A DNA stretch of 64,000 nucleotides from Escherichia coli (GCF_003019035.1 NZ_CP027447.1); one strand, 5' to 3'; numbered from the stretch's first letter, positions 6,869 through 39,230 are shown. The notes: generated by a model not told the origin, from the letters alone. Numbers and translations: made by a program.

Positions 6869-6903
6869 GACATAACTCCTGCTCCAGGAATGAATTGGGA
6901 TCT

Positions 6904-6957
6904 GATGCCTTGTCGGACGCGACACGGTTGTAGCCTGATAAGACGTGTCAGGCATCG
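6904..6957. repeat. REP-like palindromic element in narU-narZ intergenic region
   Basis: Inverted repeat GCCTGA...TCAGGC nested in GATGCC...GGCATC; resembles enterobacterial REP units. Confidence 0.4.
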
Positions 6958-6962
6958 ATCTC

Positions 6963-8351
6963 TTATTTTTGGCTGAACTTCCGCCGACCATAAACCAGCC
7001 AGGTCAGTAGCACGCAAACGATGTAGAAGATTAAAAACACTTTCATCGCGCCCACCGGAGAGCCGGTCATATTGAGCGACATGCCAAACGCCTGCGGAAT
7101 AAAAAAGCCGCCCACTGCGCCAATGGCTGAGATAAAGCCCAGAGCGGCTGCCGTTTCGGTGACGGCTTCTCTTTGAGCTTGCTCATCACTACCGCCTTTC
7201 ATCTTCACCCGATAAATGGTTATCTGGCGAAAGATGACGGCGATCATCTGGAAAGTAGAACCACTTCCCAGACCCGCGGTCAGAAACAGCCCCATAAATA
7301 CGGCGTAAAATGCGATGAAATTACCGGAGCCTGTGCCCGGTAAGGTAAGGAACAGCAGGGCGCTGAAAATCGCCATAAAAATGAAGTTGATCAACGTCAC
7401 CCGCACGCCGCCGAATTTATCGGAAATAGCACCACCAACCGATCGCGCGATGGCACCGATAAATGGGCCAAAGAACGCCAGGCGCAGAATATTCACATCC
7501 GGGAACTGAGTTTTCGCCAGCATGGCAAAACCCGCAGAAAAACCGATAAACGAACCGAAGGTGGCAAGGTAAAGCAGGCTCAGCAGCCAGAGATGCAGGC
7601 GTTGTAACACTGGCAGCTGGTCGGCAATTGACGCGCGTGAACTGGCGATATCATTCATCCCTGACCAGGCGGCGATCGTGGCAATCGCCAGTAATGGCAC
7701 CCAAATCCATGCGGCATTCGCCAGCGACATCACCGAACCGTCGGCCTGCGGTACGCCATTGACGCCGAGAAAGGCAAATACGGGTACAAAAATGACCAGC
7801 GGTGCAACCAGCTGCATCACACTTACACCTAAGTTTCCTAATCCGCCATTAATCCCAAGTGCGCTCCCTTGTTTGGCTTTTGGGAAGAAGAAACTGATAT
7901 TGCCCATGCTCGAAGCAAAGTTCGCACCTGCAAAACCGCATAGCAAAGCGATAACGATAAATATCCCAAAAGGAGTATTCGGATTCTGCACGGCAATTCC
8001 GAGCCAGACGCAAGGAATAATCAGGATTGCAGTACTAAAAACCGTCCATCGGCGTCCACCGAATATAGGCACCATAAAGGAGTAGGGGACACGCAATAAT
8101 GCGCCAGAAACGGAGGGTAATGCGGTTAATAAAAAGAGTTGATCGGTAGTGAAATTAAAACCGATTTTATTGAGATTAACAGTAACTGCGCTAAATAGCA
8201 TCCAGACACAGAAGGCAAGAAGTAGACAACTGACTGATATCCAGAGGTTTCTTCGTGCAATATGTTTTCCTTTATTTTCCCAGAAGGCCGGATTTTCTGG
8301 TTTCCAGTCGCGTAAAAGATAACGACTATTTTTCTCATTTTGCAGTGCCAT
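6963..8351 (-). CDS. narU: Nitrate/nitrite transporter (MFS, NarK family)
   Basis: ORF 6963..8393; probable start at ATG 8349-8351 (MALQNEKNSRYLLRDW), about 462 aa; multi-pass membrane protein upstream of narZ. Confidence 0.85.
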   Translation of the reverse strand: MALQNEKNSRYLLRDWKPENPAFWENKGKHIARRNLWISVSCLLLAFCVWMLFSAVTVNLNKIGFNFTTDQLFLLTALPSVSGALLRVPYSFMVPIFGGRRWTVFSTAILIIPCVWLGIAVQNPNTPFGIFIVIALLCGFAGANFASSMGNISFFFPKAKQGSALGINGGLGNLGVSVMQLVAPLVIFVPVFAFLGVNGVPQADGSVMSLANAAWIWVPLLAIATIAAWSGMNDIASSRASIADQLPVLQRLHLWLLSLLYLATFGSFIGFSAGFAMLAKTQFPDVNILRLAFFGPFIGAIARSVGGAISDKFGGVRVTLINFIFMAIFSALLFLTLPGTGSGNFIAFYAVFMGLFLTAGLGSGSTFQMIAVIFRQITIYRVKMKGGSDEQAQREAVTETAAALGFISAIGAVGGFFIPQAFGMSLNMTGSPVGAMKVFLIFYIVCVLLTWLVYGRRKFSQK

Positions 8352-8660
8352 ATTGTTCCTCACATGCACACATTGGTAATGAAAAAAAGACAAAACAGGA
8401 GGTAAGGCGCAATAGCCAATTATTAGAATTAAGGATGAATCAGGTGAAGTGCTGATTAGAAGAATAGATAAGAAAGCGTAACTGCGGAGGCAGAATGTGG
8501 ATTAAACAGACAGATATGTGTTACTAAATGTAACCATCAAACGGGGGTTAATCTTTGAACGTATGTCATGTTTCAACCCTTCAGATCGTGAATCTAAAGG
8601 GTTGCATATTAACTATATTCACAACAAGACCAGACACTTATAGAATTAGTGATGATTTAT

Positions 8661-9917
8661 TCACTGAAAAGGCCATGAGCTGGAGGAAAACGATCTGTCC
8701 AGAAAGTCTATCGGTTCCTCTCTTATCGCCTCATTGTAATAATCGTTATTACAGTAAGTATTGTTTATTTCATCTAATGTCATATTTTTAGTTTTTATAT
8801 TCATCTGATTTACAACTTCTTCTGTTTTATAAGTGTGTATATTATATGGGGTATATGCTTCTTTAATAGTATAGTGAAACAATTCGTTATCCACATCTAC
8901 TCCGTCAGAGTGAACTTCAAATGCACCAGGCGAAAGAATTGCCAGGCCAGTATTAAGCTTAAGTGCTGGGGAAAATAAATTAAATAACATGAGCTGCATA
9001 GTAGGGCAATTGTTCTTCCCAGAAACATTTAAAAAATTTAAGTTTTTGCTCTGTTTTATTATGGGGAATAAAGTTCCAATATCGGATGTATTCTTAGTGT
9101 CAATGCGGGTTATTTTATTATTGTCCAGCCTTAAACTTTTGATAGATGAAAGATAAGTCAGGAAATGAAGGTTTATTTTTTCCAACTGATTGTTCGCAGC
9201 GTTTAATGTCTGAACATTGCAGAAGTTGCTAAAGAATATTTTAATTTCAGAAAGCAAGTTGTTGTTGATAAGTAACGTATTCAAGTTGGGGAATAAGGCA
9301 TTATGTAAACTTGTTAGTTTATTATGGGATAGATCCAGCAGTAAAAGTTCATCTTTATTTCCTGCCACAATATCAGTTAATTGATTGTGGCTGAGATTCA
9401 GGTACTGCAGCCTTTCGCAACATTCTAATTGCACAAACTCTAGTTGATTATGTGCCGCACTAAAATAAGTAATTGATGAAAGCCGATCTATATCAATATT
9501 TCTGAGAGAATTATTATTCATAGATATATGTGTAATGCTTACATTTCTACCTTGAGGCAAATTTATTGACTCAAGAGCATTACTATTCAGACTAAGCTTT
9601 ACGAGTCTATCGTAGGTGGTTGTATCAAAATGTGTGAGTTGGTTATTATCAAGATTGATAGAGGTGAAGTTTTGCAGCCCTGGTGGTTGGGTAGTTAAAT
9701 TAAGTCCTGATAAATCAATATCATTCTGTTTCGACAAAAAAGCACAATTTATCCTTTTAGCGGCTTCGTTTCGGCATTCCGGACGATGGATTTCACCTGT
9801 AAGTATGCGTTCTGCTTTCCATTGATTTAATTCGAGCATCCAGTTAAATTCATTTTTTTCTGGATGTTGCTGTATGGATTGTGGATTTATTTTATTAAAT
9901 ATTGAAGGGAATTTCAT
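8661..9917 (-). CDS. Leucine-rich repeat protein (YddK-like)
   Basis: 418-aa ORF with many LxxLxLxxNxL repeats (e.g. LQYLNLSHNQLTDI, LLLLDLSHNKLTSL); AT-rich coding sequence. Confidence 0.7.
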   Translation of the reverse strand: MKFPSIFNKINPQSIQQHPEKNEFNWMLELNQWKAERILTGEIHRPECRNEAAKRINCAFLSKQNDIDLSGLNLTTQPPGLQNFTSINLDNNQLTHFDTTTYDRLVKLSLNSNALESINLPQGRNVSITHISMNNNSLRNIDIDRLSSITYFSAAHNQLEFVQLECCERLQYLNLSHNQLTDIVAGNKDELLLLDLSHNKLTSLHNALFPNLNTLLINNNLLSEIKIFFSNFCNVQTLNAANNQLEKINLHFLTYLSSIKSLRLDNNKITRIDTKNTSDIGTLFPIIKQSKNLNFLNVSGKNNCPTMQLMLFNLFSPALKLNTGLAILSPGAFEVHSDGVDVDNELFHYTIKEAYTPYNIHTYKTEEVVNQMNIKTKNMTLDEINNTYCNNDYYNEAIREEPIDFLDRSFSSSSWPFQ

Positions 9918-9979
9918 AACTGCTCCGTAGTAATGCTTTATTTTAATGATTTATTACCCTTGATAAATCAGGATGTGTT

Positions 9980-11245
9980 TTATAACTCTGTTGTAAAGGA
10001 TTGGCTTAACCAATTATTGGATGTTGGACCAAAACCTAAGGAAGGTTTATCCTCATTATGAATATAATAACAGACGGGTGTGCCCGTTGGGTCCTTTAGC
10101 CCCGAGTGTGAGGGTAGAGAAGAGGAATTTGACTTATAGTCACCAACCCCGTACATGCGACGCATAGGCAGAATAGCTTTTAGTTCTGCGTCAGAAAATA
10201 TTGTTTCTTCTTCTATTAAGGCGTACTCTCTGGAATAATATTTTGATCTATAACGAATAGACATTGAGTCATTTTCTTTTATATGATTTCCTTCGGAATT
10301 CTCGCTTACTTCTACAAGATGTTCATCGCTGGTATCGATATTTGTGATTGCCAGGTTATAAGATAAATCAATGGTCACTTCATTAGTGTCATCAATTATA
10401 TTTCTTACTGCAGTCCAGTACTGCATTTGGGCAAGTGGATCATTGTTGATGCCGTTAACTAATACATGCCAAAGATGTTTTGATGATATTAATTGATCAA
10501 TGTCATCTGTTGGCAATAAATTGTTATTGCTTAAGTTTAAATATTCCAGTTTTGTAGTGGTTTTCGCGTTTAAATGTGCAATATGGTTGTCGTTTAAAGT
10601 GATTTTCTCCACTATGGGGTGATTGTGTAATATAAGGTCATTGATCATGTTGTGATGGGCACTTAACTCAATCAGAGATTCTTGCCGGGAGAGATCCAGC
10701 GATGCTAGTTTGTTATAATCAAGATTAAGAAATTTCAGTTTATAACTATCAGAAATATTAATTTTTGTCAGGTTGTTATTTTGCGCTTCCAGGTTAACCA
10801 ATGAAAGCTGATTTTTTAAATCCAAATTTTCCAGATTATTGTGATCAATATAAATATTTTCCAGTTTTGATTGATTTGGAAAGGTTATCGTTTTAATTTT
10901 ATTAAAGCTGAGGTTGATATTGACGAGGCTGGCATTGTCAGTAAAGTCAAGACAAGTGAGACAATTGTTTTCCAGATTTAACGTGTTAACTGTCGAGGGG
11001 ATAGGGGGTAACTCACTCAAATCAAGATATGACAAATCAAGAGATGCCATGTTCGAATTGTAAGCTTCTTTAATTCGCTCCACGGCAATTGCTCTTTCTT
11101 CACCATTATTAAGCGACTTATTACCCCATTGTGCCAGTCGTTCACAAAAATTGCTGGAGATGGTTTTTTTGTTAGGTAATGCGTTATTTAATTGATAACT
11201 GGCATTATTTTTTACACAAGCTGTATTAATATTGGTCATAATCAC
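9980..11245 (-). CDS. Leucine-rich repeat protein, paralogue of the preceding gene
   Basis: 421-aa ORF with repeated LxxLxLxxNxL units (LVNINLSFNKIKTI, LKFLNLDYNKLASLDLS); AT-rich. Confidence 0.7.
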   Translation of the reverse strand: MIMTNINTACVKNNASYQLNNALPNKKTISSNFCERLAQWGNKSLNNGEERAIAVERIKEAYNSNMASLDLSYLDLSELPPIPSTVNTLNLENNCLTCLDFTDNASLVNINLSFNKIKTITFPNQSKLENIYIDHNNLENLDLKNQLSLVNLEAQNNNLTKINISDSYKLKFLNLDYNKLASLDLSRQESLIELSAHHNMINDLILHNHPIVEKITLNDNHIAHLNAKTTTKLEYLNLSNNNLLPTDDIDQLISSKHLWHVLVNGINNDPLAQMQYWTAVRNIIDDTNEVTIDLSYNLAITNIDTSDEHLVEVSENSEGNHIKENDSMSIRYRSKYYSREYALIEEETIFSDAELKAILPMRRMYGVGDYKSNSSSLPSHSGLKDPTGTPVCYYIHNEDKPSLGFGPTSNNWLSQSFTTEL

Positions 11246-27053: not shown

Positions 27054-28310
27054 TTATTTACTCATAGTATTGATATTGAAGACCTGTTCCAGCATGGGAT
27101 TGAACACAAAGCCTTTCACCTCTTTGTTCATCGCCAGTTGATAGTTTTTCTGGAACAGGTACACATAAGCAGCGTCATCAATGACGATTTTCTGTGCCTG
27201 CTGGTAGTCCCGGGTACGCTGCGTCTGGTCGGTGGTCGCTAGCGCATTGCGCAGTAACTTATCGACCTCACTGTTTTCATAGAACGAGCGGTTACCCGGC
27301 AGACCTTTTTTGTCGGACTCAAACCAGTAATTCATAAACATATACGGGTCGGCAAAATCCGGACTCCAGTTGCCAATCGCGATGTCGTAATCACCTTTAC
27401 CCACTCTGTCGCGCATGGTGGCGTTCGCCAGCTTTTCCAGCTTCACATTGATGCCCAGCTTGTTGAGACTGGATTGTGTCGCCAGAGCAATAGGCTCCCA
27501 GTTCGGATCATTATCAGAATAGAGAAACGTCAGGCTGGTGGGTTTGCTCGTCACTTTATCCCATTCGGCTTTGGCTTTCGTTTCGTCATGGTTGTATTGC
27601 ATTGCCGTCGCATCGTATCCCCACATGCCTTCCGGAATCGGGCCGCGCATCTGTTTTCCGTTACCACTCAGAATGCCGTTAACCATTCCCTGATAATCGG
27701 TAGACCAGGAAATGGCCCGACGCAGATCCGCCTGATTAAGTGGCGCTTTGCTGTTATTCAGATACAGATAGGTGACGCGCAGTGACGGATACTCTGCCAC
27801 ATTGACTTTGTTTTCCTGCTTCAGTGCGTTGAGTTGATCCACCGGCAGCGCATCGGCAATGTCAATGTCGCCACGGGAGAGCTGCAGGCGACGGGAAGCA
27901 CTTTCACCGATAATTTTTACCGATACCCGTTTGAAATTCGGTTTATTGCCGGGGTAATGCGGATTTGGCACCAGAACTAATTGCTGACCTTTTTGCCAGC
28001 TTTTCAGCATAAACGGTCCGGAGCCAGCGGTATTTTGCGCGAGGAAACCACGGGCATCATCCGCCGCATGCTCCTTTAAGACCGCCGGATTGATAATGGA
28101 TGCACCGTCATTCGCCAGCGTGTAGAGGAACGGTGCGAATGGCTGGCTAAGGGTAAACCTCACTATATGTTCGTCGGGAGCATCAATCTTTAAATCTTTG
28201 GGAAATGCTTCTGCTGGCCCCTGGCCGATTTTTAGTAACCGCTCAAAAGAGAGTTTTACTGCTTCGGCAGTGACAGGTGTGCCATCGGCAAATTTAGCAT
28301 TGTCCTTCAG
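27054..28310 (-). pseudogene. ddpA: ddpA periplasmic dipeptide-binding protein, 5'-truncated by prophage insertion
   Basis: Reading frame runs without stop from 27054 up to the prophage junction at 28310 (ORF track shows only 27054..28163 from an internal GTG); about 418 C-terminal residues remain, signal peptide and first ~98 codons absent. Confidence 0.85.
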
Positions 28311-28490
28311 TGTATTGATTCACTTGAAGTACGAAAAAAAACCGGGAGGACATTGGATTATTCGGGATCTGATGGGATTAGATTTGGTGGGGCTTGCAAG
28401 CCTGTAGCGCAAATTTTAGTCGTTAATCAATGAAACGCGAAAGATAGTAAAAAATTGCTTTTGTTTCATTGAAAATACGAAAAACAAAAA
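28311..28490 (+). repeat. Prophage left end (attL) with transposase-binding sites L1-L3
   Basis: Terminal TG; end-binding repeats TGATTCACTTGAAGTACGAAAA (28317-28338), TGAAACGCGAAAGATAG (28431-28447), TTGTTTCATTGAAAATACGAAAAAC (28461-28485). Confidence 0.75.
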
Positions 28491-28649
28491 CACTGCAAAT
28501 CATTTCAATAACAGCTTCAAAAAACGTTCAAAACCGATAACAACCAGGCTGTAACCAAATGACTCATATCACAAATCAGCTCATGCCGTTTAGGTATGTT
28601 ACATGTGTGATTATGTGAGGTGAAGTATGTTTTAGCTGGTTCATGGTTG

Positions 28650-29168
28650 TTATACGGCTTTTTTTACATCTTGTGGTTCTTGCGAAGGAGCTACAAGACC
28701 TTCCTGTTCATGAATACCATGCTCTGACAAAATCTCTTTGCGCTCTTCTGCTGGTAAAGTTTCTAGCATTTGGGCGAGTTGTATGCACTCACGCGATACG
28801 CCGTGCAGAGATTGGATTTGAGTCTGATCAAAGATACTTGGCATTAGTGCACTAAGTCCACCTTTACTAAGTAGCTTTAATGCCCTCTGGATTTCCTCTG
28901 GTTCTAACTCTGCAACCAAAGCCATTAACACAGAAGCTAACTTATAAGCTGACTTATCGTTATCTAATAACTGCGCCCCTCCTAATTCTGCCTGAGTGGC
29001 ATCAGGTAATGAGCTGATATGGTATTCATAAGCAACACCCTTTACTCCTTTGATCTGTCTCTTTTTCCATCCCTCATTAGTTGCTTTGCGGCTAATACTA
29101 CTTGCTGAAGACGGAAGACCAGCAACCCCTTGTAGCTCTTTAGCTGAAAACCATTCTTGTGTCATCAC
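28650..29168 (-). CDS. c: Prophage repressor c (D108-type N-terminal DNA-binding domain, Mu-like C-terminal domain)
   Basis: 172-aa ORF facing the left end; C-terminal ...[13 protein letters not shown]...[15 protein letters not shown]...[12 protein letters not shown] matches the Mu repressor family; N-terminal domain is homologous to the transposase N-terminus in this window. Confidence 0.8.
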
Positions 29169-29356
29169 AAACCTCGCTTTAAATACACGATGTATTCAAA
29201 GAAATGAAAAATATATTCACTTTAAAATCATCGAGATAGATGAATTTCAAACAAAACATTTGAATACACTATTGCATTGACAATGTATTCACACTAGCAT
29301 TACTGCATACCTTATCAGCTACCTTGCGGCGTAGCTGATGGCGTAGCTTGTGAGGA
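29169..29356. promoter_or_regulatory. Operator / early promoter / enhancer region between c and ner
   Basis: At least four copies of TGTATTCA(C) or its complement at 29191, 29212, 29261, 29284; divergent c and ner starts flank it. Confidence 0.6.
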
Positions 29357-29365
29357 TTGCATTTT

Positions 29366-29584
29366 ATGGCGATAAAGAAAAGTAAATGTGAAGACAAAAG
29401 TAGATACGACATTGTTGCTGATCTGCGCAAAAGAGGAAAAAGCCTAGCAGCTCTTGGTCGTGAGAACGGTCTCTCTATCTCTACGGTAAAAAATGCCTTG
29501 GATAAACCTTACCCTCGGGGGGAAAGAATCATTGCCGATGCATTGGGAGTTGAGCCACGAGACATCTGGCCTTCGAGGTATTGA
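29366..29584 (+). CDS. ner: Ner-family DNA-binding early regulator
   Basis: ORF 29357..29584; likely ATG 29366 with GAGGA RBS; [72 protein letters not shown] (Ner/Nlp family). Confidence 0.8.
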
Positions 29585-29586
29585 AA

Positions 29587-31587
29587 ATGCAACCACAATG
29601 TAATGATTGGTTTTCTGCAAAGAAATTAGAAGGGCTGATAGGTCTTCCAAAATCCTCTAGCGCGATCTCTCGTAAAGCAAGGTTAGAACAGTGGGTGTTT
29701 CGACAGATACACGGGGTAAGAGGAGTAGCCTATGAGTTTCATATCTCATCTTTACCAAAGGAAACGCAAGCTGCGTTGTTGCTTAGACAAGGAGAGATCG
29801 AAACAAGCCAGGGCCGTTTTGAAATCGCCCGCCCCACGCTGGAAGCCCATGATTATGATCGTGAGGCACTGTGGAGCAAATGGGATAACGCCAGCGATTC
29901 CCAGCGCAGACTTGCTGAAAAATGGTTGCCTGCGGTTCAGGCCGCAGACGAAATGCTGAACCAGGGGATTTCAACAAAAACGGCTTTTGCGACCGTTGCA
30001 GGGCATTACCAGGTCAGCGCATCCACTTTGCGGGACAAGTATTACCAGGTACAGAAGTTTGCGAAGCCTGACTGGGCGGCTGCGCTTGTTGATGGACGTG
30101 GTGCATCCCGTCGCAACGTTCACAAAAGTGAATTTGACGAGGATGCCTGGCAGTTTCTGATTGCAGATTATCTGCGACCGGAAAAGCCCGCCTTCCGCAA
30201 ATGTTATGAGCGTCTGGAACTGGCAGCCCGCGAGCATGGCTGGAGTATTCCCTCCCGTGCCACGGCCTTTCGCCGGATTCAGCAACTGGACGAGGCAATG
30301 GTTGTTGCCTGTCGTGAAGGTGAACATGCACTGATGCATCTGATACCGGCACAGCAGCGAACTGTGGAACACCTGGACGCCATGCAGTGGATCAACGGCG
30401 ACGGTTATCTGCATAACGTCTTTGTACGCTGGTTTAACGGTGATGTGATCCGCCCGAAAACATGGTTCTGGCAGGATGTGAAAACCCGAAAAATTCTGGG
30501 CTGGCGCTGCGATGTGAGCGAGAACATTGATTCAATTCGCCTCTCGTTCATGGATGTTGTGACTCGCTACGGTATCCCGGAGGATTTTCACATCACCATT
30601 GATAACACCCGTGGTGCTGCGAATAAATGGCTGACGGGAGGCGCGCCCAATCGCTACCGCTTTAAGGTAAAAGAGGACGATCCAAAAGGACTGTTTTTAC
30701 TGATGGGGGCGAAAATGCACTGGACAAGCGTTGTTGCCGGTAAAGGCTGGGGCCAGGCAAAACCTGTTGAACGTGCTTTCGGTGTTGGTGGGCTTGAGGA
30801 ATACGTTGATAAGCATCCGGCACTGGCTGGCGCATATACGGGGCCTAATCCGCAGGCAAAACCTGATAACTATGGCGACCGCGCTGTTGATGCAGAGCTG
30901 TTTCTGAAAACCCTTGCCGAAGGTGTGGCGATGTTCAATGCCAGAACAGGCCGTGAAACAGAAATGTGCGGAGGCAAACTTTCGTTTGATGACGTTTTTG
31001 AGCGTGAATACGCCAGAACGATTGTGCGTAAGCCTACCGAAGAGCAAAAACGGATGCTGTTACTGCCTGCCGAGGCGGTGAACGTTTCACGTAAAGGCGA
31101 GTTCGCGCTTAAAGTTGGCGGCTCCCTTAAAGGTGTGAAAAACGTTTATTACAACATGGCGTTAATGAATGCCGGAGTGAAAAAAGTTGTGGTCAGATTT
31201 GATCCACAGCAGTTACACAGCACGGTTTATTGCTACACCCTGGACGGTCGGTTTATCTGTGAAGCGGAATGTCTGGCACCTGTTGCGTTTAATGATGCTG
31301 CGGCAGGCCGTGAATATCGCCGCCGCCAGAAACAACTGAAATCTGCGACGAAAGCAGCAATTAAGGCACAGAAACAAATGGATGCACTGGAAGTGGCAGA
31401 GCTGCTGCCGCAGATAGCCGAACCTGAAGCACCAGAATCACGAATTGTCGGCATTTTCCGGCCTTCCGGTAATACGGAACGGGTGAAGAATCAGGAGCGT
31501 GATGATGAATACGAAACTGAGCGTGATGAATATCTGAATCATTCGCTGGATATTCTGGAACAGAACAGACGTAAAAAAGCCATTTAA
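29587..31587 (+). CDS. A: Transposase A (DDE transposase/integrase of Mu family)
   Basis: ORF 29581..31587; likely ATG 29587; from about residue 60 onward matches Mu A as I recall it ([10 protein letters not shown]...[28 protein letters not shown]...), N-terminal ~55 aa differ. Confidence 0.9.
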
Positions 31588-31625
31588 TTAACGTTTAAAC
31601 AAAATTTAATTACGAGGTTATTCAG

Positions 31626-32564
31626 ATGAATATTTCCGATATTCGCGCAGGACTGCGCACGCTTGTAGAAAATGAAGAAACCACCTTTAAACAAATTGCT
31701 CTTGAGAGCGGACTTTCTACCGGAACTATCAGTAGTTTTATCAATGATAAGTACAACGGGGATAACGAGCGTGTTTCACAAATTCTGCAACGCTGGCTGG
31801 AAAAATATCATGCAGTTGCAGAACTACCTGAACCGCCCCGCTTTGTGGAAACGCAGACGGTAAAACAAATCTGGACAAGTATGCGTTTTGCCAGCCTGAC
31901 TGAAAGTATTGCTGTTGTGTGTGGCAATCCTGGTGTGGGCAAAACCGAAGCGGCCCGTGAATATCGCCGCACCAATAACAATGTCTGGATGATCACCATT
32001 ACGCCATCCTGTGCCAGCGTTCTTGAATGTCTTACTGAACTGGCGTTTGAGCTGGGAATGAATGACGCACCACGCCGTAAAGGGCCGCTCTCCCGCGCCC
32101 TGCGACGTCGCCTTGAAGGTACACAGGGGCTGGTTATCATCGACGAAGCTGATCATCTTGGTGCCGAAGTTCTGGAAGAACTCCGCCTGTTACAGGAATC
32201 AACCCGTATTGGCCTTGTGCTGATGGGAAATCACCGGGTTTATTCAAATATGACGGGGGGTAACAGAACGGTTGAATTTGCCCGTCTGTTTTCCCGTATT
32301 GCAAAGCGCACTGCAATTAATAAAACCAAAAAAGCCGATGTAAAAGCTATTGCGGATGCCTGGCAGATTAACGGCGAAAAAGAACTGGAGTTATTACAGC
32401 AGATTGCGCAGAAACCAGGTGCGCTTCGCATTCTGAATCATTCACTTCGCCTTGCCGCCATGACGGCTCACGGTAAAGGTGAGCGTGTTAACGCAGATTA
32501 TCTGCGTCAGGCTTTCCGTGAATTAGACCTGGACGTTGATATTTCAACGCTGCTGCGTAATTAA
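31626..32564 (+). CDS. B: Transposition target-DNA activator B (AAA+ ATPase)
   Basis: 312-aa ORF with Walker A GNPGVGKTEA and Walker B VIIDEADHL; immediately after A. Confidence 0.9.
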   Translation: MNISDIRAGLRTLVENEETTFKQIALESGLSTGTISSFINDKYNGDNERVSQILQRWLEKYHAVAELPEPPRFVETQTVKQIWTSMRFASLTESIAVVCGNPGVGKTEAAREYRRTNNNVWMITITPSCASVLECLTELAFELGMNDAPRRKGPLSRALRRRLEGTQGLVIIDEADHLGAEVLEELRLLQESTRIGLVLMGNHRVYSNMTGGNRTVEFARLFSRIAKRTAINKTKKADVKAIADAWQINGEKELELLQQIAQKPGALRILNHSLRLAAMTAHGKGERVNADYLRQAFRELDLDVDISTLLRN

Positions 32565-32579
32565 GAAGGAGAAGAAATT

Positions 32580-32807
32580 ATGATGGCCCGAAATATAAAA
32601 ATGGCAACGGATGCGCAGAACTGGTTACAGGCGCGCGGGAGTCATGTAAATGAATCATATCTCGGCGTGGCGCGTCCGATTCTTGAAATCACTTACCCAC
32701 CGGTGGAACTGGTAAAAAACGCGGTCAGAATTATGGAGCATAAGTCCGGGGTGGCCCGTTCTGTATGGACGGCCCGTCTTAATGGTTGCCAGATTATCTG
32801 GAGATAA
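32580..32807 (+). CDS. kil: Kil-like host cell-division interference protein (by position and size)
   Basis: 75-aa ORF directly after B, as in Mu. Confidence 0.55.
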
Positions 32808-32809
32808 CG

Positions 32810-33040
32810 ATGTGTATTAAAGCCGAAAAATATATTGAATGGGTTAAACACTGTCAGTGCCACGGGGTGCCGCTGACGACATATAAATGCCCCGGATGTG
32901 GTGAACAGATTATGACGCAATGCTCACCCGAAAAGGAAATTCGGGATTCCCTGACATGTTGTCCGTGGTGCAGCGCGGTTTTCTTTAAGCAGGTAAAAGG
33001 CGCGAAGGTAAAAGCCAGCGCAGTTATTCAGAATCAATAA
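32810..33040 (+). CDS. Small cysteine-rich early protein (possible zinc ribbon)
   Basis: ORF 32786..33040; probable start MCIKAEKY; CQCHG...CPGCGEQ...CCPWC cysteine pattern. Confidence 0.5.
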   Translation: MCIKAEKYIEWVKHCQCHGVPLTTYKCPGCGEQIMTQCSPEKEIRDSLTCCPWCSAVFFKQVKGAKVKASAVIQNQ

Positions 33041-33051
33041 GGAGAAACAAA

Positions 33052-33321
33052 ATGGCAAAGGTTATCTTTGAGTTTACATGGCTGGAAAGTAGTGACGGTT
33101 GCAATGGGCGCAGAGAAGTTCTGGATGCAAAAGCATGTCTTGCAGATATCTCGCCAACGGAAAATACCGGGCCTCATGATTTACTGGCAAATATCGTCCT
33201 GACTATGGCTCCTGAAATTATTAAAAAGGCCAAAGATGAGATGCTGACCACTATGAAGAAAGTGGGTATGGAGGCTGAATGTGATTTAGTACCACATCCG
33301 GTGAATGCGGTTAAACATTAA
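33052..33321 (+). CDS. Early-region hypothetical protein
   Basis: 89-aa ORF with RBS-like AGGAGA upstream; same strand as early operon. Confidence 0.5.
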   Translation: MAKVIFEFTWLESSDGCNGRREVLDAKACLADISPTENTGPHDLLANIVLTMAPEIIKKAKDEMLTTMKKVGMEAECDLVPHPVNAVKH

Positions 33322-33341
33322 TTCGCAAAGGAGCGCTGACA

Positions 33342-33761
33342 ATGAACGTCAAAATCCGAAATGAAATTCAGGCATTAATCCGAATTCAGGAACGCAATAA
33401 CAACGGTGGTGAATTACGCGAGTTTATTTGCGCCCGGAAAGTTGATGGTTGTGGTGAAAAGACTTACCTGATTGCTTTCGACCATTACAGCATCTGTGCG
33501 CGTTATTGCGGCGAAAGCATATCCCGCGCCATTGCATTTGGCGGTGCGTTCAACGTGGATTTATGGGAGTACGTCATGGACCGGGAATACATCTGCGCAT
33601 CAGACCCTGAAGCCCGTGAAATGTGGCAGCGTATCTGGCGCGATTACCGGTTAATGGCAAAAGGCTGGGCGCGCTGCTGTTATTCCTCGCTTGCCCTGAA
33701 AGCGGTTCAGTTATCGCTACGGCATATTCCGGCATCACTGCGCGAGCCTCTGCTGTACTGA
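33342..33761 (+). CDS. Early-region hypothetical protein (cysteine-rich)
   Basis: 139-aa ORF, AGGAG RBS upstream, several Cys residues. Confidence 0.5.
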   Translation: MNVKIRNEIQALIRIQERNNNGGELREFICARKVDGCGEKTYLIAFDHYSICARYCGESISRAIAFGGAFNVDLWEYVMDREYICASDPEAREMWQRIWRDYRLMAKGWARCCYSSLALKAVQLSLRHIPASLREPLLY

Positions 33762-34061
33762 ATGGTGACTGACATGAAGTGTAATCGTAAGCGCTGGTCA
33801 CGCGAAGACCGGGAATTTATCGAAGCCAACGTCGGAAAAATGACCGTTGAAGAAATGGCGGAAAAACTGAAAGTCGCCACAACCGCCCTCCGGGCACATG
33901 CCAGAAGGCACGGAATATCATTGTGTGTATACCGAATCAGTGAACACGACAAATATTTATGTCGTGAACTTTATAAAGAAGGACTGGATATTCATGTCAT
34001 TGCCCGAAAGATGGAATTAAGCAATCGAGCTGTATCCAGCATTGTATACAGCGGATATTAA
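33762..34061 (+). CDS. Early-region hypothetical protein with HTH-like segments
   Basis: 99-aa ORF contiguous with upstream gene. Confidence 0.45.
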   Translation: MVTDMKCNRKRWSREDREFIEANVGKMTVEEMAEKLKVATTALRAHARRHGISLCVYRISEHDKYLCRELYKEGLDIHVIARKMELSNRAVSSIVYSGY

Positions 34062-34080
34062 TTAACAGGAGCTTTAATTT

Positions 34081-34605
34081 ATGGCTAAACCAGCAAAACG
34101 TATCAAAAGTGCCGCAGCGGCTTATGTGCCACAAAACCGCGATGCGGTGATTACCGATATTAAACGCATCGGGGATTTACAGCGCGAAGCATCACGTCTG
34201 GAAACGGAAATGAATGATGCCATCGCGGAAATTACGGAGAAATTTGCAGCCCGGATTGCACCGATTAAAACCGATATTGAAACCCTTTCAAAAGGTGTTC
34301 AGGGATGGTGTGAAGCGAACCGCGACGAACTGACAAACGGCGGCAAAGTGAAGACGGCGAATCTTGTCACCGGTGATGTATCGTGGCGGGTCCGTCCACC
34401 ATCAGTAAGTATTCGTGGTATGGATGCAGTGATGGAAACGCTGGAGCGTCTTGGCCTGCAACGCTTTATTCGCACGAAGCAGGAAATCAACAAGGAAGCG
34501 ATTTTACTAGAACCGAAAGCGGTCGCAGGTGTTGCCGGAATTACAGTTAAATCGGGAATTGAAGATTTTTCCATTATTCCGTTTGAACAGGAAGCCGGTA
34601 TTTAA
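34081..34605 (+). CDS. gam: Gam host-nuclease inhibitor (Ku-like DNA end-binding protein)
   Basis: 174-aa ORF, size and sequence character of Mu Gam; AGGAG RBS. Confidence 0.85.
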   Translation: MAKPAKRIKSAAAAYVPQNRDAVITDIKRIGDLQREASRLETEMNDAIAEITEKFAARIAPIKTDIETLSKGVQGWCEANRDELTNGGKVKTANLVTGDVSWRVRPPSVSIRGMDAVMETLERLGLQRFIRTKQEINKEAILLEPKAVAGVAGITVKSGIEDFSIIPFEQEAGI

Positions 34606-34703
34606 TACCACCATTAATATTTAATTAATTCACATTCTTTTAATTATGGCGCGATGCGTCAGGGGATTGCTCGCGCCTGAAACAGATTACTGAGGAATAA
34701 AAC

Positions 34704-35234
34704 ATGGTTGATGCAAAAATTCTGAATGGTGTCAGCACATTATTACGGGCTTACGGACGCCTGACCTGCGGAGTTCTGGCTGAAAAAATGAAGATGCCTC
34801 CCTCATCAATGGTGTATTTCCTGCGTGATGCGGTTGATGTCGGCGTTCTCACCGAATGCAACGGATTTTATGACGTTCCGCGCCCGCGTCCGACGCCGCC
34901 TGTAAGACGAAACGCAACTGAGCAGCCTGCTGTTGATGATGCGGTGTGGTGCAACTGGCGTCGCTCATTACCCTGGGTGGAAGGTAATACCATCCCCGCA
35001 CTGGCAAAAGAGTTTGCGACAGGCGTACTGACCTGTGAGTCCGTTCACATCGTTGCAGAAGTGGATGACGAGATGTGCAAACAGGGAATGCCACGTTTTG
35101 TGATGGCTTATATCGATATCCGGCTGGGGCGGTTTATTTGCAGTTCAAGCGCCTGGAATATCACCGACCATGTACTGCGTTATCTCATTCTTGATTGTTC
35201 TCCGGCTCCCGTAGCGGTGCAGGAGGTGGCGTGA
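34704..35234 (+). CDS. Early-region hypothetical protein
   Basis: 176-aa ORF downstream of gam. Confidence 0.5.
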   Translation: MVDAKILNGVSTLLRAYGRLTCGVLAEKMKMPPSSMVYFLRDAVDVGVLTECNGFYDVPRPRPTPPVRRNATEQPAVDDAVWCNWRRSLPWVEGNTIPALAKEFATGVLTCESVHIVAEVDDEMCKQGMPRFVMAYIDIRLGRFICSSSAWNITDHVLRYLILDCSPAPVAVQEVA

Positions 35235-35758
35235 TGTTTTTTAAAACGTCAAATCCCGCAGCACTGCTGGCGTGGGACCAGTTTATGGCGGACTGTCTGA
35301 AACTACGCGAAGAAGCCCGCCATCTTGATAAGGTTCTGGGTTGTGGTTGCCGGTCAGTATTCAGCACAGGTATTGGTGGGCGTTATTTTCATGGTGTGAA
35401 CTTTCCGGGGAATGAGCGCCCTTTCTCGCGGGAGCTGTGGACCGTACAACGGCCCGCATCAGGTAACAGTTGCAGGCCTAGAACTTCGCGGATACCTGTT
35501 CATCTCAGGGAGCAGGCAAAAGAGCTGGCGAAAATATGGCAGGAGAATATTCCGGTCACTTATGCCCGCACAGATGCTCTTTTACCCGCACTGGGACTGG
35601 ATTTCAGCGCAACAATATTCGGGCCGCTCCGGTGGTTCCGTGTTGGTGATGTGATTTACGTCATGACGGGGATGACACCCGCACAGGGCTGCATGACGGA
35701 AATCCTGTCCGATGAATTCATGAAGGCAAAGATTGCGTTAAAGGGGGCCGCTAAATGA
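35234..35758 (+). CDS. Early-region hypothetical protein
   Basis: ORF 35195..35758; likely ATG 35234 (MFFKTSNPAALLAWDQF) with AGGAGG RBS at 35221, overlapping upstream stop. Confidence 0.5.
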   Translation: MFFKTSNPAALLAWDQFMADCLKLREEARHLDKVLGCGCRSVFSTGIGGRYFHGVNFPGNERPFSRELWTVQRPASGNSCRPRTSRIPVHLREQAKELAKIWQENIPVTYARTDALLPALGLDFSATIFGPLRWFRVGDVIYVMTGMTPAQGCMTEILSDEFMKAKIALKGAAK

Positions 35759-36423
35759 AAGAACGTGGCGTTGCTTTTAATGACGATATGGTCAGGGCAA
35801 TTCTCGAAGGAAGAAAGACGCAAACACGCCGCCCGGTAAAAAATGTCGGACACGATAACTGTCTGGTTATCCATCGTAACGGTGTTTATACCCACGTTAT
35901 GGATGCACCTGAGCATGGTTTATGCCCGTTCGGTAACGTTGGTGATCGCATCTGGGTCCGTGAAGCGTGGGCAATATTAGGCAATGAGGATGGTTGCAGT
36001 GTGGACTGGAACGGCAACCTTTGTCATGGCGATGAGAAGAAGGCAGCAAGGATTTATCGGGCAAGTTGTGAACAAAAGCCTGGTGATTACGGTCTGTGGT
36101 CAATACCTGATGATGCTGACTGGAAACCTCGCACTGTGAATGAAAAGTTTGATGGCAGGTGGTGCCCATCTATCCACATGCCGCGCTGGGCGTCGCGCAT
36201 TCTGTTGGGAATAACCGACGTGCGTGTGGAACGGCTGCATGATATTAGCGAGGCAGATGCGAAAGCGGAAGGCGCATTTCCGGCGACGTACAAAATTACG
36301 CCACCGGAAGCTGTTTATCGCGTTGGTTTTGGTGATATCTGGCGCGGTATTTATGGGCAAGATAACTGGCTGTCTAATCCGTGGGTATGGGTAATTGAGT
36401 TTAAGCGTATTCAGGAAGCATAA
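35755..36423 (+). CDS. Conserved prophage protein (ASCH/PUA-like N-terminal motif suspected)
   Basis: 222-aa ORF with N-terminal MVRAILEGRKTQTRRP and GDRIWVREAW motifs, recurrent in prophage proteins. Confidence 0.5.
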   Translation: MKERGVAFNDDMVRAILEGRKTQTRRPVKNVGHDNCLVIHRNGVYTHVMDAPEHGLCPFGNVGDRIWVREAWAILGNEDGCSVDWNGNLCHGDEKKAARIYRASCEQKPGDYGLWSIPDDADWKPRTVNEKFDGRWCPSIHMPRWASRILLGITDVRVERLHDISEADAKAEGAFPATYKITPPEAVYRVGFGDIWRGIYGQDNWLSNPWVWVIEFKRIQEA

Positions 36424-36425
36424 CT

Positions 36426-36767
36426 ATGAGCAAATCACTTAATGCACGTTGTATTCGCCGTTGGGAAGTCAGATTTAAGCCTGTTTGTGATTCAAAAGTT
36501 AGCCCTCACATGCGTAAAAGCTTTTTGCGTGGGGTGCGTGAATTAGGGCTTATTACGGCTGAAAACATGGTTGAAAGCATGGCTGAGAAAAACGCCAGGT
36601 TTGATTACGACGGCAAGGACACAGGCTGGTCACCGGAGTTTTCTAACTGGTATGCAACATGCCGAGAAAAGTATTGTAAAGAGGCCCGCGACTATCTGGA
36701 TGAAGAAGTCACAAACGATGAGATCGATGAAGAAATCAGAACTGAGCTAGAGTATTGGAATGACTAA
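36426..36767 (+). CDS. Early-region hypothetical protein with acidic C-terminal tail
   Basis: 113-aa ORF ending DYLDEEVTNDEIDEEIRTELEYWND. Confidence 0.45.
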   Translation: MSKSLNARCIRRWEVRFKPVCDSKVSPHMRKSFLRGVRELGLITAENMVESMAEKNARFDYDGKDTGWSPEFSNWYATCREKYCKEARDYLDEEVTNDEIDEEIRTELEYWND

Positions 36768-36837
36768 TCTGGCCGATATGACCGGAAAGTGTTTCAGCGA
36801 TACAAGCGGTGTGGTAGCACCGCTTTTTAAAGGTATG

Positions 36838-37392
36838 ATCATGAGTCGCACATCCCTGATTAAATTAATCCATGTCGCCCGTCGTGATCTACAACTCGAC
36901 GACGATACTTACCGCGCTTTTCTGATGCAGAAAACGGGCAAAATCAGTTGCCGCGAGCTGACGGTAACGCAACTGGAACAGGTGCTCGATGCCATGAAAG
37001 AACGCGGCTTTAAGAAGCTGAATAAACATCCACGTCGCCGCTTTAAGGGGCATGTCACGCCCCGCGAGAAGGTATACAAAGTCTGGCAGCAGATGGCAGA
37101 AGACGGTTTTATTACCGATGGCGGTGATGTGGCGCTGGATAAATATGTTCAGCGCCTGACGGCGAAACGTAATGGCGGACAGGGTGTTTCCACGCTGGCG
37201 TGGTGTCATGGCGACACCCTGTTGATTGTTCTCGAAACTCTCAAGCAGTGGCATATCCGCTGTATTCGTGAAGCCTTTTCCCGTCACGGGCTTCCGTTGC
37301 CGGTCAGTCCGTCCGGGCGTGAACTGCGCGGCTATGATGCCATGACGGCGGCTTATGCCCATGCCAGAAAGACACGGAGGATGGCACAATGA
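36838..37392 (+). CDS. gemA: GemA-like protein
   Basis: ORF 36760..37392; probable internal start MIMSRTSLIKLIHVARRDLQLDD; sits immediately upstream of mor as in Mu. Confidence 0.6.
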   Translation: MMSRTSLIKLIHVARRDLQLDDDTYRAFLMQKTGKISCRELTVTQLEQVLDAMKERGFKKLNKHPRRRFKGHVTPREKVYKVWQQMAEDGFITDGGDVALDKYVQRLTAKRNGGQGVSTLAWCHGDTLLIVLETLKQWHIRCIREAFSRHGLPLPVSPSGRELRGYDAMTAAYAHARKTRRMAQ

Positions 37393-37778
37393 CGGAAGAT
37401 TTATTTGGTGATTTGCAGGATGACACCATCCTGGCACATCTTGACAATCCCGCAGAGGATACGTCACGCTTTCCGGCACTGCTGGCGGAGCTGAACGATT
37501 TACTGCGCGGGGAATTGTCCCGGCTGGGTGTTGATCCTGCCCATTCACTGGAGATTGTAGTGGCTATCTGTAAGCATCTGGGCGGCGGTCAGGTCTACAT
37601 TCCACGCGGTCAGGTTCTGGACTCGCTGATTCGGGATTTGCGTATCTGGAATGATTTTAACGGTCGCAACGTCAGCGAACTGACCACCCGTTATGGTGTC
37701 ACTTTCAATACGGTTTACAAGGCCATTCGCCGGATGCGACGGCTGAAATACCGCCAGTACCAGCCCTCACTTCTGTAA
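37389..37778 (+). CDS. mor: Middle operon regulator Mor
   Basis: 129-aa ORF; C-terminal HTH (NGRNVSELTTRYGVTFNTVYKAIRR) homologous to protein C downstream. Confidence 0.85.
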   Translation: MTEDLFGDLQDDTILAHLDNPAEDTSRFPALLAELNDLLRGELSRLGVDPAHSLEIVVAICKHLGGGQVYIPRGQVLDSLIRDLRIWNDFNGRNVSELTTRYGVTFNTVYKAIRRMRRLKYRQYQPSLL

Positions 37779-37783
37779 ACAGT

Positions 37784-37808
37784 AAAGCCGGTTAATCCGG
37801 CTTTTTTT
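37784..37808 (+). terminator. Rho-independent terminator after mor (end of early transcript)
   Basis: AAAGCCGG-TTAA-CCGGCTTTTTTT. Confidence 0.7.
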
Positions 37809-37855
37809 ACGTCCTCAATATCCTGTGATGAATAACCGTACCGGGGGAAATCATC

Positions 37856-38086
37856 ATGGGTAAAGGCTGGAATGCATCCTTTCATCTTGGCAGACGTGAG
37901 CGGCTGCGTCAGGAGGTTTTGCACCGTGTCGCCGGTGGGCCTCGGCCTTCGCCCCGCGACTATACCGGTCATGATGGCACCCACGGCAGTTATTACATGA
38001 AAGGCTGGCAGTCAGTTGATATGCCGGAAATTCTTCACCACTGTCAACGTTATAAGGAAAAATATTGTGTACAGAAAATTCAGTGA
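37856..38086 (+). CDS. Hypothetical small protein between mor and C
   Basis: 76-aa ORF; weak support. Confidence 0.3.
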   Translation: MGKGWNASFHLGRRERLRQEVLHRVAGGPRPSPRDYTGHDGTHGSYYMKGWQSVDMPEILHHCQRYKEKYCVQKIQ

Positions 38087-38119
38087 TGAATGTTTCGGGC
38101 CGTCCACGCTGATTAGTGC

Positions 38120-38197
38120 GATAAAAGTGATTGCCCTTGTGGTTCTGATAACCATCAGTGCCGTGGTGTATCTTTCTGTCTGTTAACCGGGGGAAAT
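38120..38197 (+). promoter_or_regulatory. Probable Mor-dependent middle promoter region (Pm) upstream of C
   Basis: Position only: in Mu, Pm lies directly upstream of C. Confidence 0.3.
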
Positions 38198-38620
38198 ATG
38201 CAGCATGATTTATTTGAACACGATCCGGCAATTCGCCAGTTAATCGGACATATTGATAACATCCCGGCCCCGGAACTGGAATCACGCTGGCCCCGTTCGG
38301 TGGTTGATCTGATTGATGTTCTGGAAAACGAACTGAAACGCCAGAACGTCAGCAATCCCCGTGAACTTGCCCGTAAACAGGCCGTTGCCCTGTCCTGTTT
38401 TCTGGGGGGGCGGCAGTTTTACATCCCCTGCGGCGATACTATCCTGACCGCGTTACGCGACGATTTGCTTTACTGCCAGTTCAATGGTCGTAACATGGAA
38501 GAACTGCGTCGCCAGTACCGCCTGTCCCAGCCGCAGATCTACCAGATTATTGCCCGCCAGAGAAAGCTGCATACACGACGTCATCAGCCTGATCTGTTCT
38601 CACCTGAAAGCCAGAAATAA
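38198..38620 (+). CDS. C: Late transcription activator C
   Basis: 140-aa ORF; C-terminal region (NGRNMEELRRQYRLSQPQIYQIIARQRK) paralogous to Mor. Confidence 0.85.
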   Translation: MQHDLFEHDPAIRQLIGHIDNIPAPELESRWPRSVVDLIDVLENELKRQNVSNPRELARKQAVALSCFLGGRQFYIPCGDTILTALRDDLLYCQFNGRNMEELRRQYRLSQPQIYQIIARQRKLHTRRHQPDLFSPESQK

Positions 38621-38646
38621 CCGGCATCCTGCCGGTTATTTCCTGT
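38620..38646 (+). terminator. Hairpin after C
   Basis: CCGGCA-TCC-TGCCGG followed by TTATTT. Confidence 0.4.
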
Positions 38647-38649
38647 CAC

Positions 38650-38711
38650 CATAATCCCGCACCTGCCATCTGATTTTTTAGACTGCCATCAGAGCATTTT
38701 TTCAGGGAAGC
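38650..38711 (+). promoter_or_regulatory. Probable C-dependent late promoter (Plys) region
   Basis: Position only, between C and lys. Confidence 0.3.
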
Positions 38712-39230
38712 ATGATGGCGGGGATACCAAAAAAACTGAAAGCCGCACTGCTGGCGGTAACGATTGCCGGTGGCGGTGTGGGTGGTTATCAGGAAATGAC
38801 CCGTCAGTCTCTGATCCACCTGGAAAATATCGCTTATCTGCCTTACCGCGATATTGCCGGTGTGCTTACGGTCTGTGTGGGACATACCGGGCCGGATATC
38901 GAAATGCGCCGTTACAGCCATGCGGAGTGTATGGCTCTCCTCGACAGTGATTTAAAACCGGTTTATGCGGCAATCGATCGTCTTGTCAGGGTGCCGCTGA
39001 CGCCATATCAGAAAACGGCGCTGGCAACGTTTATTTTCAACACCGGTGTTACCGCATTCAGTAAAACAACGTTGCTGAAAAAACTCAATGCCGGTGATTA
39101 CGCCGGAGCGCGTGACCAGATGGCCCGCTGGGTGTTTGCCGCAGGCCATAAATGGAAAGGACTGATGAACCGTCGCGAAGTGGAAATGGCAATCTGGAAT
39201 ATCAGGGGGGCGGATGACCTTCGCCAGTAA
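38712..39230 (+). CDS. lys: Endolysin (lysozyme-like) with N-terminal signal-anchor
   Basis: 172-aa ORF; N-terminal hydrophobic Gly-rich segment LKAALLAVTIAGGGVGG. Confidence 0.8.
   Translation: MMAGIPKKLKAALLAVTIAGGGVGGYQEMTRQSLIHLENIAYLPYRDIAGVLTVCVGHTGPDIEMRRYSHAECMALLDSDLKPVYAAIDRLVRVPLTPYQKTALATFIFNTGVTAFSKTTLLKKLNAGDYAGARDQMARWVFAAGHKWKGLMNRREVEMAIWNIRGADDLRQ

Follow-up and report, generated by a model that had tools for sequence, protein, structure and literature searches.

In a 64,000-nucleotide stretch of Escherichia coli DNA (NZ_CP027447.1; hereafter the window), positions 32580–37392 hold a run of small genes between the transposition gene B and mor of a Mu-like prophage. The evidence presented below makes it very probable that this run is the semi-essential (SE) early operon region of a Muvirus prophage, composed of a conserved block and a cassette slot. 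An initial annotation had described a tightly packed same-strand array between B and mor, and its coordinates were confirmed, with 11 open reading frames (ORFs) on the plus strand rather than the "about ten" given there. As in an SE region, the genes lie on the same strand between B and mor, and orthologues of kil, gam, and gemA occur in Mu order. In Mu itself, the SE region lies within a long early transcript and contains 14 ORFs, with phenotypes for only a few of them; host viability upon infection is restored when it is deleted, which marks the region as dispensable and host-toxic (PMC3325207), in line with the dispensability in Mu-like phages stated in the initial annotation. The region has also been described as poorly conserved and as encoding small uncharacterised proteins (PMC8705779).

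Downstream of B (31626–32564), the array starts with kil (32580–32807; 75 amino acids (aa)), which encodes a host-killing early protein, followed by the zinc-ribbon-like gp6 (32810–33040; 76 aa), an acidic 89-aa allele at the gp7 position that is an alternative to Mu gp7 and is here termed gp7x (33052–33321), the lineage-restricted gp8 (33342–33761; 139 aa), gp9 (33762–34061; 99 aa), coding for a putative regulator of the helix-turn-helix (HTH) type, and gam (34081–34605; 174 aa), whose product binds double-stranded DNA ends and inhibits a host nuclease. The second half comprises gp11 (34704–35234; 176 aa; Pfam Gp11_C), gp12 (35234–35758; 174 aa; PHROG 2314), two cassette genes, and gemA (36841–37392; 183 aa; Pfam GemA). 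The first cassette gene (35755–36423) encodes a 222-aa ASCH-fold protein predicted to be a YqfB-type amidohydrolase, and the second (36426–36767) a 113-aa protein with a pI of 5.0 and a predicted helical bundle, termed p113. The last early-operon gene, mor (37389–37778, plus strand), encodes the middle-operon activator with 99% identity to Mu Mor and is followed on the same strand by an intrinsic terminator (37784–37804; 8-bp stem with five GC pairs, then TTTTT) that would end the early transcript. A terminator is annotated at the equivalent position in phage D108.

About 95% of the region is coding. Neighbouring genes are separated by 0–20 nt, with two larger gaps, one of 98 nt behind gam and one of 73 nt ahead of gemA; three gene junctions overlap by 1–4 nt, and Shine-Dalgarno-like motifs precede most starts. 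Sigma-70 promoter-like and terminator-like matches inside 32580–37392 showed no excess over shuffled sequence. Given this chance level of internal signals and the strong terminator behind mor, the region most likely represents the distal part of one early operon, which would run from ner through A, B, and the SE genes to mor. The longer spacer between gam and gp11 (34606–34703) is AT-rich and contains a GGCGCGA...TCGCGCC hairpin on the plus strand (34648–34677; read from the sequence and without a T-run), with a minimum free energy of -20.4 kcal/mol and a z-score of -1.94 for the fold of the spacer. This hairpin may act in the processing or stability of the RNA, or it may have no role at all; a search of 28300–39000 against Rfam returned nothing relevant.

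Several of the small ORFs lack a Pfam or NCBIfam family, as would be the case if some or all of them were chance open frames. Yet each of the 11 plus-strand ORFs matches a PHROG family (E <= 6e-36), and the seven longest minus-strand ORFs of the region have no PHROG match. Purifying selection was observed for all seven measurable ORFs, with dN/dS values of 0.10–0.29 for kil, gp6, gp8, gp9, gam, gp11, and gp12 when compared to the most divergent homologues collected. Together with the tight coupling of the genes, their Shine-Dalgarno-like motifs, and the confident AlphaFold2 models obtained for both proteins modelled, these data leave practically no room for chance frames, and the ORFs were treated as genuine genes.

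The closest sequenced relative of the whole region is Escherichia phage PhiR68_1, with 97.0% DNA identity over 100% of its length, and several E. coli prophages are also near-identical; at least 80% of 32580–36500 is present in 18 of 5,426 complete E. coli genomes. In comparison to phage Mu, identity is likewise 97% but extends over 71% of the length. Gene order agrees with the annotations of Mu, D108, and SfMu, and eight ORFs are shared with Mu at the protein level (kil, gp6, gp9, and gam, 100%; gemA, 97%; gp8, 96%; gp11 and gp12, 95%, for gp12 over 166 aa, as its 3' end differs). No counterpart was found among Mu proteins for gp7x, the 222-aa protein, and p113, which instead are 99–100% identical to proteins of PhiR68_1 and of the E. 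coli Esc30 prophage; gp7x (PHROG 2230, unknown function; 99% to PhiR68_1) has no match in SfMu either. DNA homology to Mu is accordingly interrupted at two places, at the gp7 allele (33072–33326) and at the cassette (35722–36799), where the 3' end of gp12 and Mu gp13, gp14, and gp15 are swapped for the two genes encoding the 222-aa and 113-aa proteins. An in-frame ATG upstream of gemA, at 36760, overlaps the end of p113 and would give a 210-aa product. PhiR68_1 is annotated with this 210-aa form and RefSeq prophages with the 183-aa form; since Mu DNA homology resumes only at 36800, the extension would be cassette-specific.

We compared the composition of the region across Mu-like phages using 45 viral contigs encoding GemA relatives together with the reference phages and the window; plus-strand ORFs between B and gemA were clustered for the 31 loci that had both of these genes. 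Three genes, kil, gp9, and gam, were each found in 29 of the 31 loci, gp11 in 25, and gp8 in 24. The gp7 position was occupied by one of two unrelated alleles, gp7x in 20 loci and the Mu allele in nine, and gp6 and gp12 were present in 11 and 6 loci, respectively. The segment from gam to gemA, by comparison, contained about 25 alternative ORF clusters, and the ten commonest of these alternative ORFs all belong to PHROGs labelled as of unknown function. The cassette of ASCH gene and p113 was seen in three loci (the window, PhiR68_1, and Esc30). These counts divide the SE region in two: the left block, from kil to gam, is largely conserved, and the right-hand part, from gam to gemA, is a cassette slot, a hot spot of exchange between otherwise near-identical phages. 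The SE region is therefore not uniformly "poorly conserved", and the slot is a likely place for experimenters to find strain-specific accessory functions.

The same slot receives other inserts. In SfMu (3554–4159) and seven further loci, a gene of the DUF5420 family (184–201 aa) lies between gam and gp11, and this insert, present in SfMu and several Mu-like contigs from IMG/VR, represents another recurrent cassette.

Among the proteins of the region, only Kil, Gam, and GemA had been given functional labels in the initial annotation, and the Mu, D108, and SfMu records agree, adding only a generic "regulator" on gp9. Nor do all ORFs correspond to characterised Mu proteins with unrelated functions, as the eight that match Mu proteins match ones that are themselves uncharacterised. 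Kil belongs to PHROG 2743 (E 3e-43) and has a dN/dS of 0.29; Gam matches Pfam Phage_Mu_Gam (E 1.4e-40; model positions 2–148 of 149) and GemA matches Pfam GemA (E 9e-29). The proposed HTH-like character of the 99-aa protein was borne out for gp9, which falls into PHROG 323 ("transcriptional regulator, D5-like"; E 5e-29) and shows weak sigma-70 region-4-like matches. Two proteins had been proposed to be cysteine-rich and zinc-binding. For gp6 this held up, as C27, C30, C50, C51, and C54 are kept in 7 of 7 unique sequences in a CxxC...CCxxC pattern of two knuckles. Its zinc-ribbon matches to TIGR02605 (18 bits) and NF047912 (16.8 bits) are weak and below the curated cut-offs, so that gp6 is placed in no named family. 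In gp8, conservation is limited to H48, C52, and C56; three homologues have F at the position of C30, and C37, C85, C112, and C113 are variable. Since its cysteine-richness is thus mostly not conserved, the zinc-binding label is weak for gp8. Only 24 gp8 clusters were found among 5.8 billion proteins, and the named ones derive from Mu-like prophages of Enterobacterales; the deepest homologue (P0414, 44% identity) was discarded as frameshifted, because its middle and C-terminal parts match alternative gp8 frames.

The remaining ORFs had been described as lacking recognisable motifs, which does not apply to the 222-aa protein with its ASCH fold, nor to gp11, which matches Pfam Gp11_C (E 7e-39) with conserved C83, C111, C125, C146, and H156. 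Judged by eye, the N-terminal ~60 residues of gp11 may be winged-helix-like. Scans of all ORFs with Pfam, NCBIfam, and PADLOC returned only the Gam, GemA, and Gp11_C families and the weak zinc-ribbon and HTH matches, and sequence searches against PDB chains with all ORFs gave no significant match.

In this prophage, the place of Mu gp13–gp15 in the slot is taken by a cassette of two genes, which is found in unrelated temperate phages as well. Homologues of its second gene, p113, form about 205 clusters, all source-named ones being from Enterobacterales, and share an acidic, conserved C-terminal motif (TNDEIDEEIxxELExWND). AlphaFold2 predicted p113 as a four-helix bundle (pLDDT 88.8), for which a comparison with PDB structures and viral models revealed no informative structural neighbour. 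The pair of an ASCH gene and a gene for a ~114-aa protein recurs in the same order and with the same 2-nt spacing in unrelated phage contigs of ~48 kb (68% and 66% identity). In these temperate-phage or phage-plasmid-like contigs (L051–L056; for example, L052 5001–5959), a gene for a 203-aa ASCH-like protein and one for a 114-aa p113 homologue are preceded by RecA-dependent-nuclease and DUF1064 genes and immediately followed by Ead/Ea22-like genes, with lysis genes beyond the latter and, in some loci, an MT-A70 methyltransferase gene after the lysis cassette. An obligate partnership of the two genes was rejected, as an ASCH-like gene is adjacent to a p113 relative, on either side of it, in only 19 of 80 viral p113 loci. 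This count and the variable order speak against a fixed unit and indicate that the pairing is frequent, not obligate; other neighbours of p113 include RecT-like proteins, methyltransferases, and small ORFs (labels read from the sequences).

As modelled, the 222-aa product of the first cassette gene has an ASCH fold that is closest to E. coli YqfB, an N4-acetylcytidine (ac4C) amidohydrolase. In YqfB, the base is Lys21, the nucleophile Thr24, and the acid Glu74, with Arg26 as the oxyanion hole (PMC6972931). Residues 16–26 of the 222-aa protein (ILEGRKTQTRR) align with ILAGRKTITIR of YqfB and contain the octapeptide G-x-K-x-x-T/S-x-R with the positions of the catalytic Lys and Thr and of the oxyanion Arg. 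Using hhalign, E172 was paired with E74 of YqfB and D168 with H70. In an alignment of 61 family members comprising homologues 39–77% identical to the query, K21 and E172 were conserved in all 61 sequences, R26 in 60, and G19 and T24 in 59 each. The family corresponds to PHROG 874 and, at 50% identity, numbers more than 42,000 clusters. Removal of ac4C from tRNA was reported for ASCH proteins of both octapeptide types, and viral ASCH proteins were assigned to the GKER type and not to the YqfB-like GK[T/S]R type (bioRxiv 10.64898/2026.02.27.708502). With the YqfB-type set Lys21-Thr24-Glu172 and Arg26 kept, an amidohydrolase is the most likely function of the 222-aa protein, and we give about an even chance to the prediction that it acts on N4-acylated cytosine-type substrates, which could be free nucleosides or ac4C in tRNA.

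Several observations weigh against this assignment. The query has no match to Pfam ASCH (PF04266), which was reached by only 1 of the 61 family sequences at E <= 0.001 and by 4 at E <= 0.1, and the family profile had no match among PDB sequences; given this marginal Pfam signal, superfamily membership is based on fold and motif, not on a hidden Markov model (HMM). The catalytic roles proposed for K21, T24, R26, and E172 are likewise read from the alignment. Furthermore, compared to YqfB, the protein has a ~60-residue insertion (about residues 75–135), helices at the C-terminus, and PSIHMPRWASR as an additional invariant motif, and because insertion and motif lack a YqfB equivalent, its substrate may differ. 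Longer ASCH homologues carried only insertions or apparent read-through extensions and no informative domain fusions. The same large insertion and extra conserved motifs could also be taken to indicate a protein without catalysis that reads or binds RNA or modified bases and, for example, sequesters tRNA or shields modified DNA. We consider such a binder improbable, as all four YqfB catalytic positions are kept in 59–61 of 61 sequences at only 39–77% identity, a conservation across divergent homologues beyond what would be expected of mere binding, and deacetylase activity was reported for every ASCH protein tested in one preprint (bioRxiv 10.64898/2026.02.27.708502). One cassette gene of a large unannotated phage family now has a concrete, testable biochemical prediction. 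If the 222-aa protein is active, phages would join the newly proposed ASCH erasers of ac4C.

The products of the SE region are probably accessory early proteins made in the first minutes of lytic development. Kil damages or kills the host, Gam caps double-stranded DNA ends against RecBCD, gp9 is a putative HTH regulator, gp6 a putative zinc ribbon, and GemA is a widely conserved early protein of transposable phages. For most SE products, the host cell or the ends of phage DNA are the probable site of action, not virion assembly, by analogy with Kil, Gam, and the phenotype of the SE deletion. This extrapolation is itself a point against a host-directed role of the whole region, as is the consideration that replication of the phage or control of immunity could instead be the task of individual uncharacterised ORFs.

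A stronger form of the host-directed idea, raised in the initial annotation, holds that the uncharacterised ORFs are dedicated counter-defence genes and that the gam-to-gemA slot is an anti-defence island in which each cassette is directed against a different immune system. Consistent with this, Gam, a RecBCD antagonist, is encoded in the same operon, the genes are small, early-expressed, and dispensable (PMC3325207), and cassettes turn over between near-identical phages as in accessory arms-race loci. In addition, p113 is small and acidic with a conserved acidic C-terminal helix, a trait common in inhibitors and DNA mimics, and the ASCH/PUA superfamily includes modified-base readers of type IV restriction systems (PMC12707154). 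However, PADLOC gave no match at E <= 0.001 and only chance-level matches of gp9 to mad1 (E 0.01) and GajB (E 0.014), and no anti-defence-labelled family was found in PHROGs or NCBIfam for the ORFs of the region or the ten alternative slot cargos, these searches not including a dedicated anti-defence HMM set. The lack of a structural neighbour of p113 among PDB or viral models, the conservation of the kil-to-gam half where variability would be expected, and a literature in which we found no report of anti-defence activity for any Mu SE ORF except Gam also argue against it. We thus regard dedicated counter-defence throughout the region as rather unlikely. In its general form, a role in counter-defence or host takeover is plausible, as it fits Gam, Kil, the SE-deletion phenotype, and the cassette turnover; beyond Gam it is a conjecture.

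It is equally conceivable that the conserved left block meets needs of the phage itself, in replication and regulation. Extended to all uncharacterised ORFs, this would give them tasks mainly in the phage life cycle, such as replicative transposition, immunity, early-to-middle timing, and DNA topology or ligation. The assignment of gp9 to the HTH regulators of PHROG 323, a gp11 N-terminus that by inspection may bind DNA, and the conservation of kil, gp8, gp9, and gam across Mu-like loci would agree with such tasks, as would the classical arm, cim, and lig/gem phenotypes, which presumably map to the Mu SE region. Moreover, GemA occurs in nearly all genera of transposable phages (PMC8705779), as expected of a core function. 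On the other hand, the phage is viable after deletion of the whole region (PMC3325207), the ASCH cassette is also found in non-transposable phages, and phages whose transposition and regulatory genes are identical differ by a wholesale swap of the right half, an exchange hard to reconcile with integrated life-cycle roles. A predominant life-cycle function of the uncharacterised ORFs is therefore possible, if on the unlikely side.

A far-reaching possibility concerns the ASCH cassette itself. The YqfB-type ASCH gene, possibly together with p113, might constitute a mobile module of phages by which an N-acyl mark on nucleic acid is erased in the course of infection, either stripping ac4C from host tRNA and thereby reprogramming translation, or removing an acyl-type modification or signal of a host defence. 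We consider this a long shot. If true, no earlier phage-encoded nucleobase deacylase would have had a part in takeover or counter-defence, and the protein would found a family of more than 40,000 sequence clusters.

Upstream of the SE region, the prophage left end is marked by the Mu left-end sequence TGTATTGATTCACTTGAAGTACG, which begins at 28311. A minus-strand host ORF, judged from its sequence to encode a putative ABC-transporter substrate-binding protein, extends from 27054 to 28310; it is open to the junction and without an N-terminus, which places the prophage insertion inside this gene. About 37 kb downstream, and thus outside the window, the right end is to be expected. The immunity region (28311–31000) includes the c repressor gene (28650–29168, minus strand), ner (29357–29584), and the N-terminus of A, and is 98% identical to PhiR68_1; Mu covers 64% and D108 45% of it, and given this partial coverage heteroimmunity of the prophage to both is probable. 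An obvious DNA-binding motif (WFSAKEL...GLP...ISRKA) is common to the repressor and the N-terminus of the transposase. Between mor and C, at 38068–38070, the stretch with Mu E19 (gp19) is missing, Mu homology jumping from locus position 6651 to 7021; the same stretch is also missing in PhiR68_1 and SfMu. Upstream of the prophage, 8001–13000 forms a low-GC island (GC 0.33–0.42, flanks ~0.54) with several minus-strand ORFs of 290–420 aa, which may be horizontally acquired host DNA.

The region is thus an object already known and sequenced, and new here are its two-part architecture and the specific biochemical prediction for one cassette gene. Compared with the SE regions of Mu (NC_000929, Mup05–Mup16) and D108, it has the same position between B and mor, the same strand, the same operon logic, and a terminator after mor. 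In contrast to Mu, the gp7 allele is unlike Mu's and 40% identical to D108 gp7, the ASCH gene and p113 replace gp13–gp15, and the upstream immunity region matches neither Mu's nor D108's. PhiR68_1 (PV340575) and Esc30-type E. coli prophages are collinear throughout the region with 97% DNA identity, but gp6 is only 76–78% identical to theirs, the window carrying the Mu allele, and for gp11 identity to PhiR68_1 is 89%; these differences reflect further allele shuffling inside one phage species. The 222-aa protein differs from YqfB (GK[T]R octapeptide type; PDB 9KYF, 1TE7) in its length, 222 instead of 103 aa, in being phage-borne, and in having D168 where YqfB has H70. Finally, Tip of phage D3112 and Aqs1 of phage DMS3, both Mu-like phages of Pseudomonas, are small early-operon proteins that act on host machinery. 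No sequence relationship to the proteins described here is expected, and they stand as a precedent for what such regions can encode.

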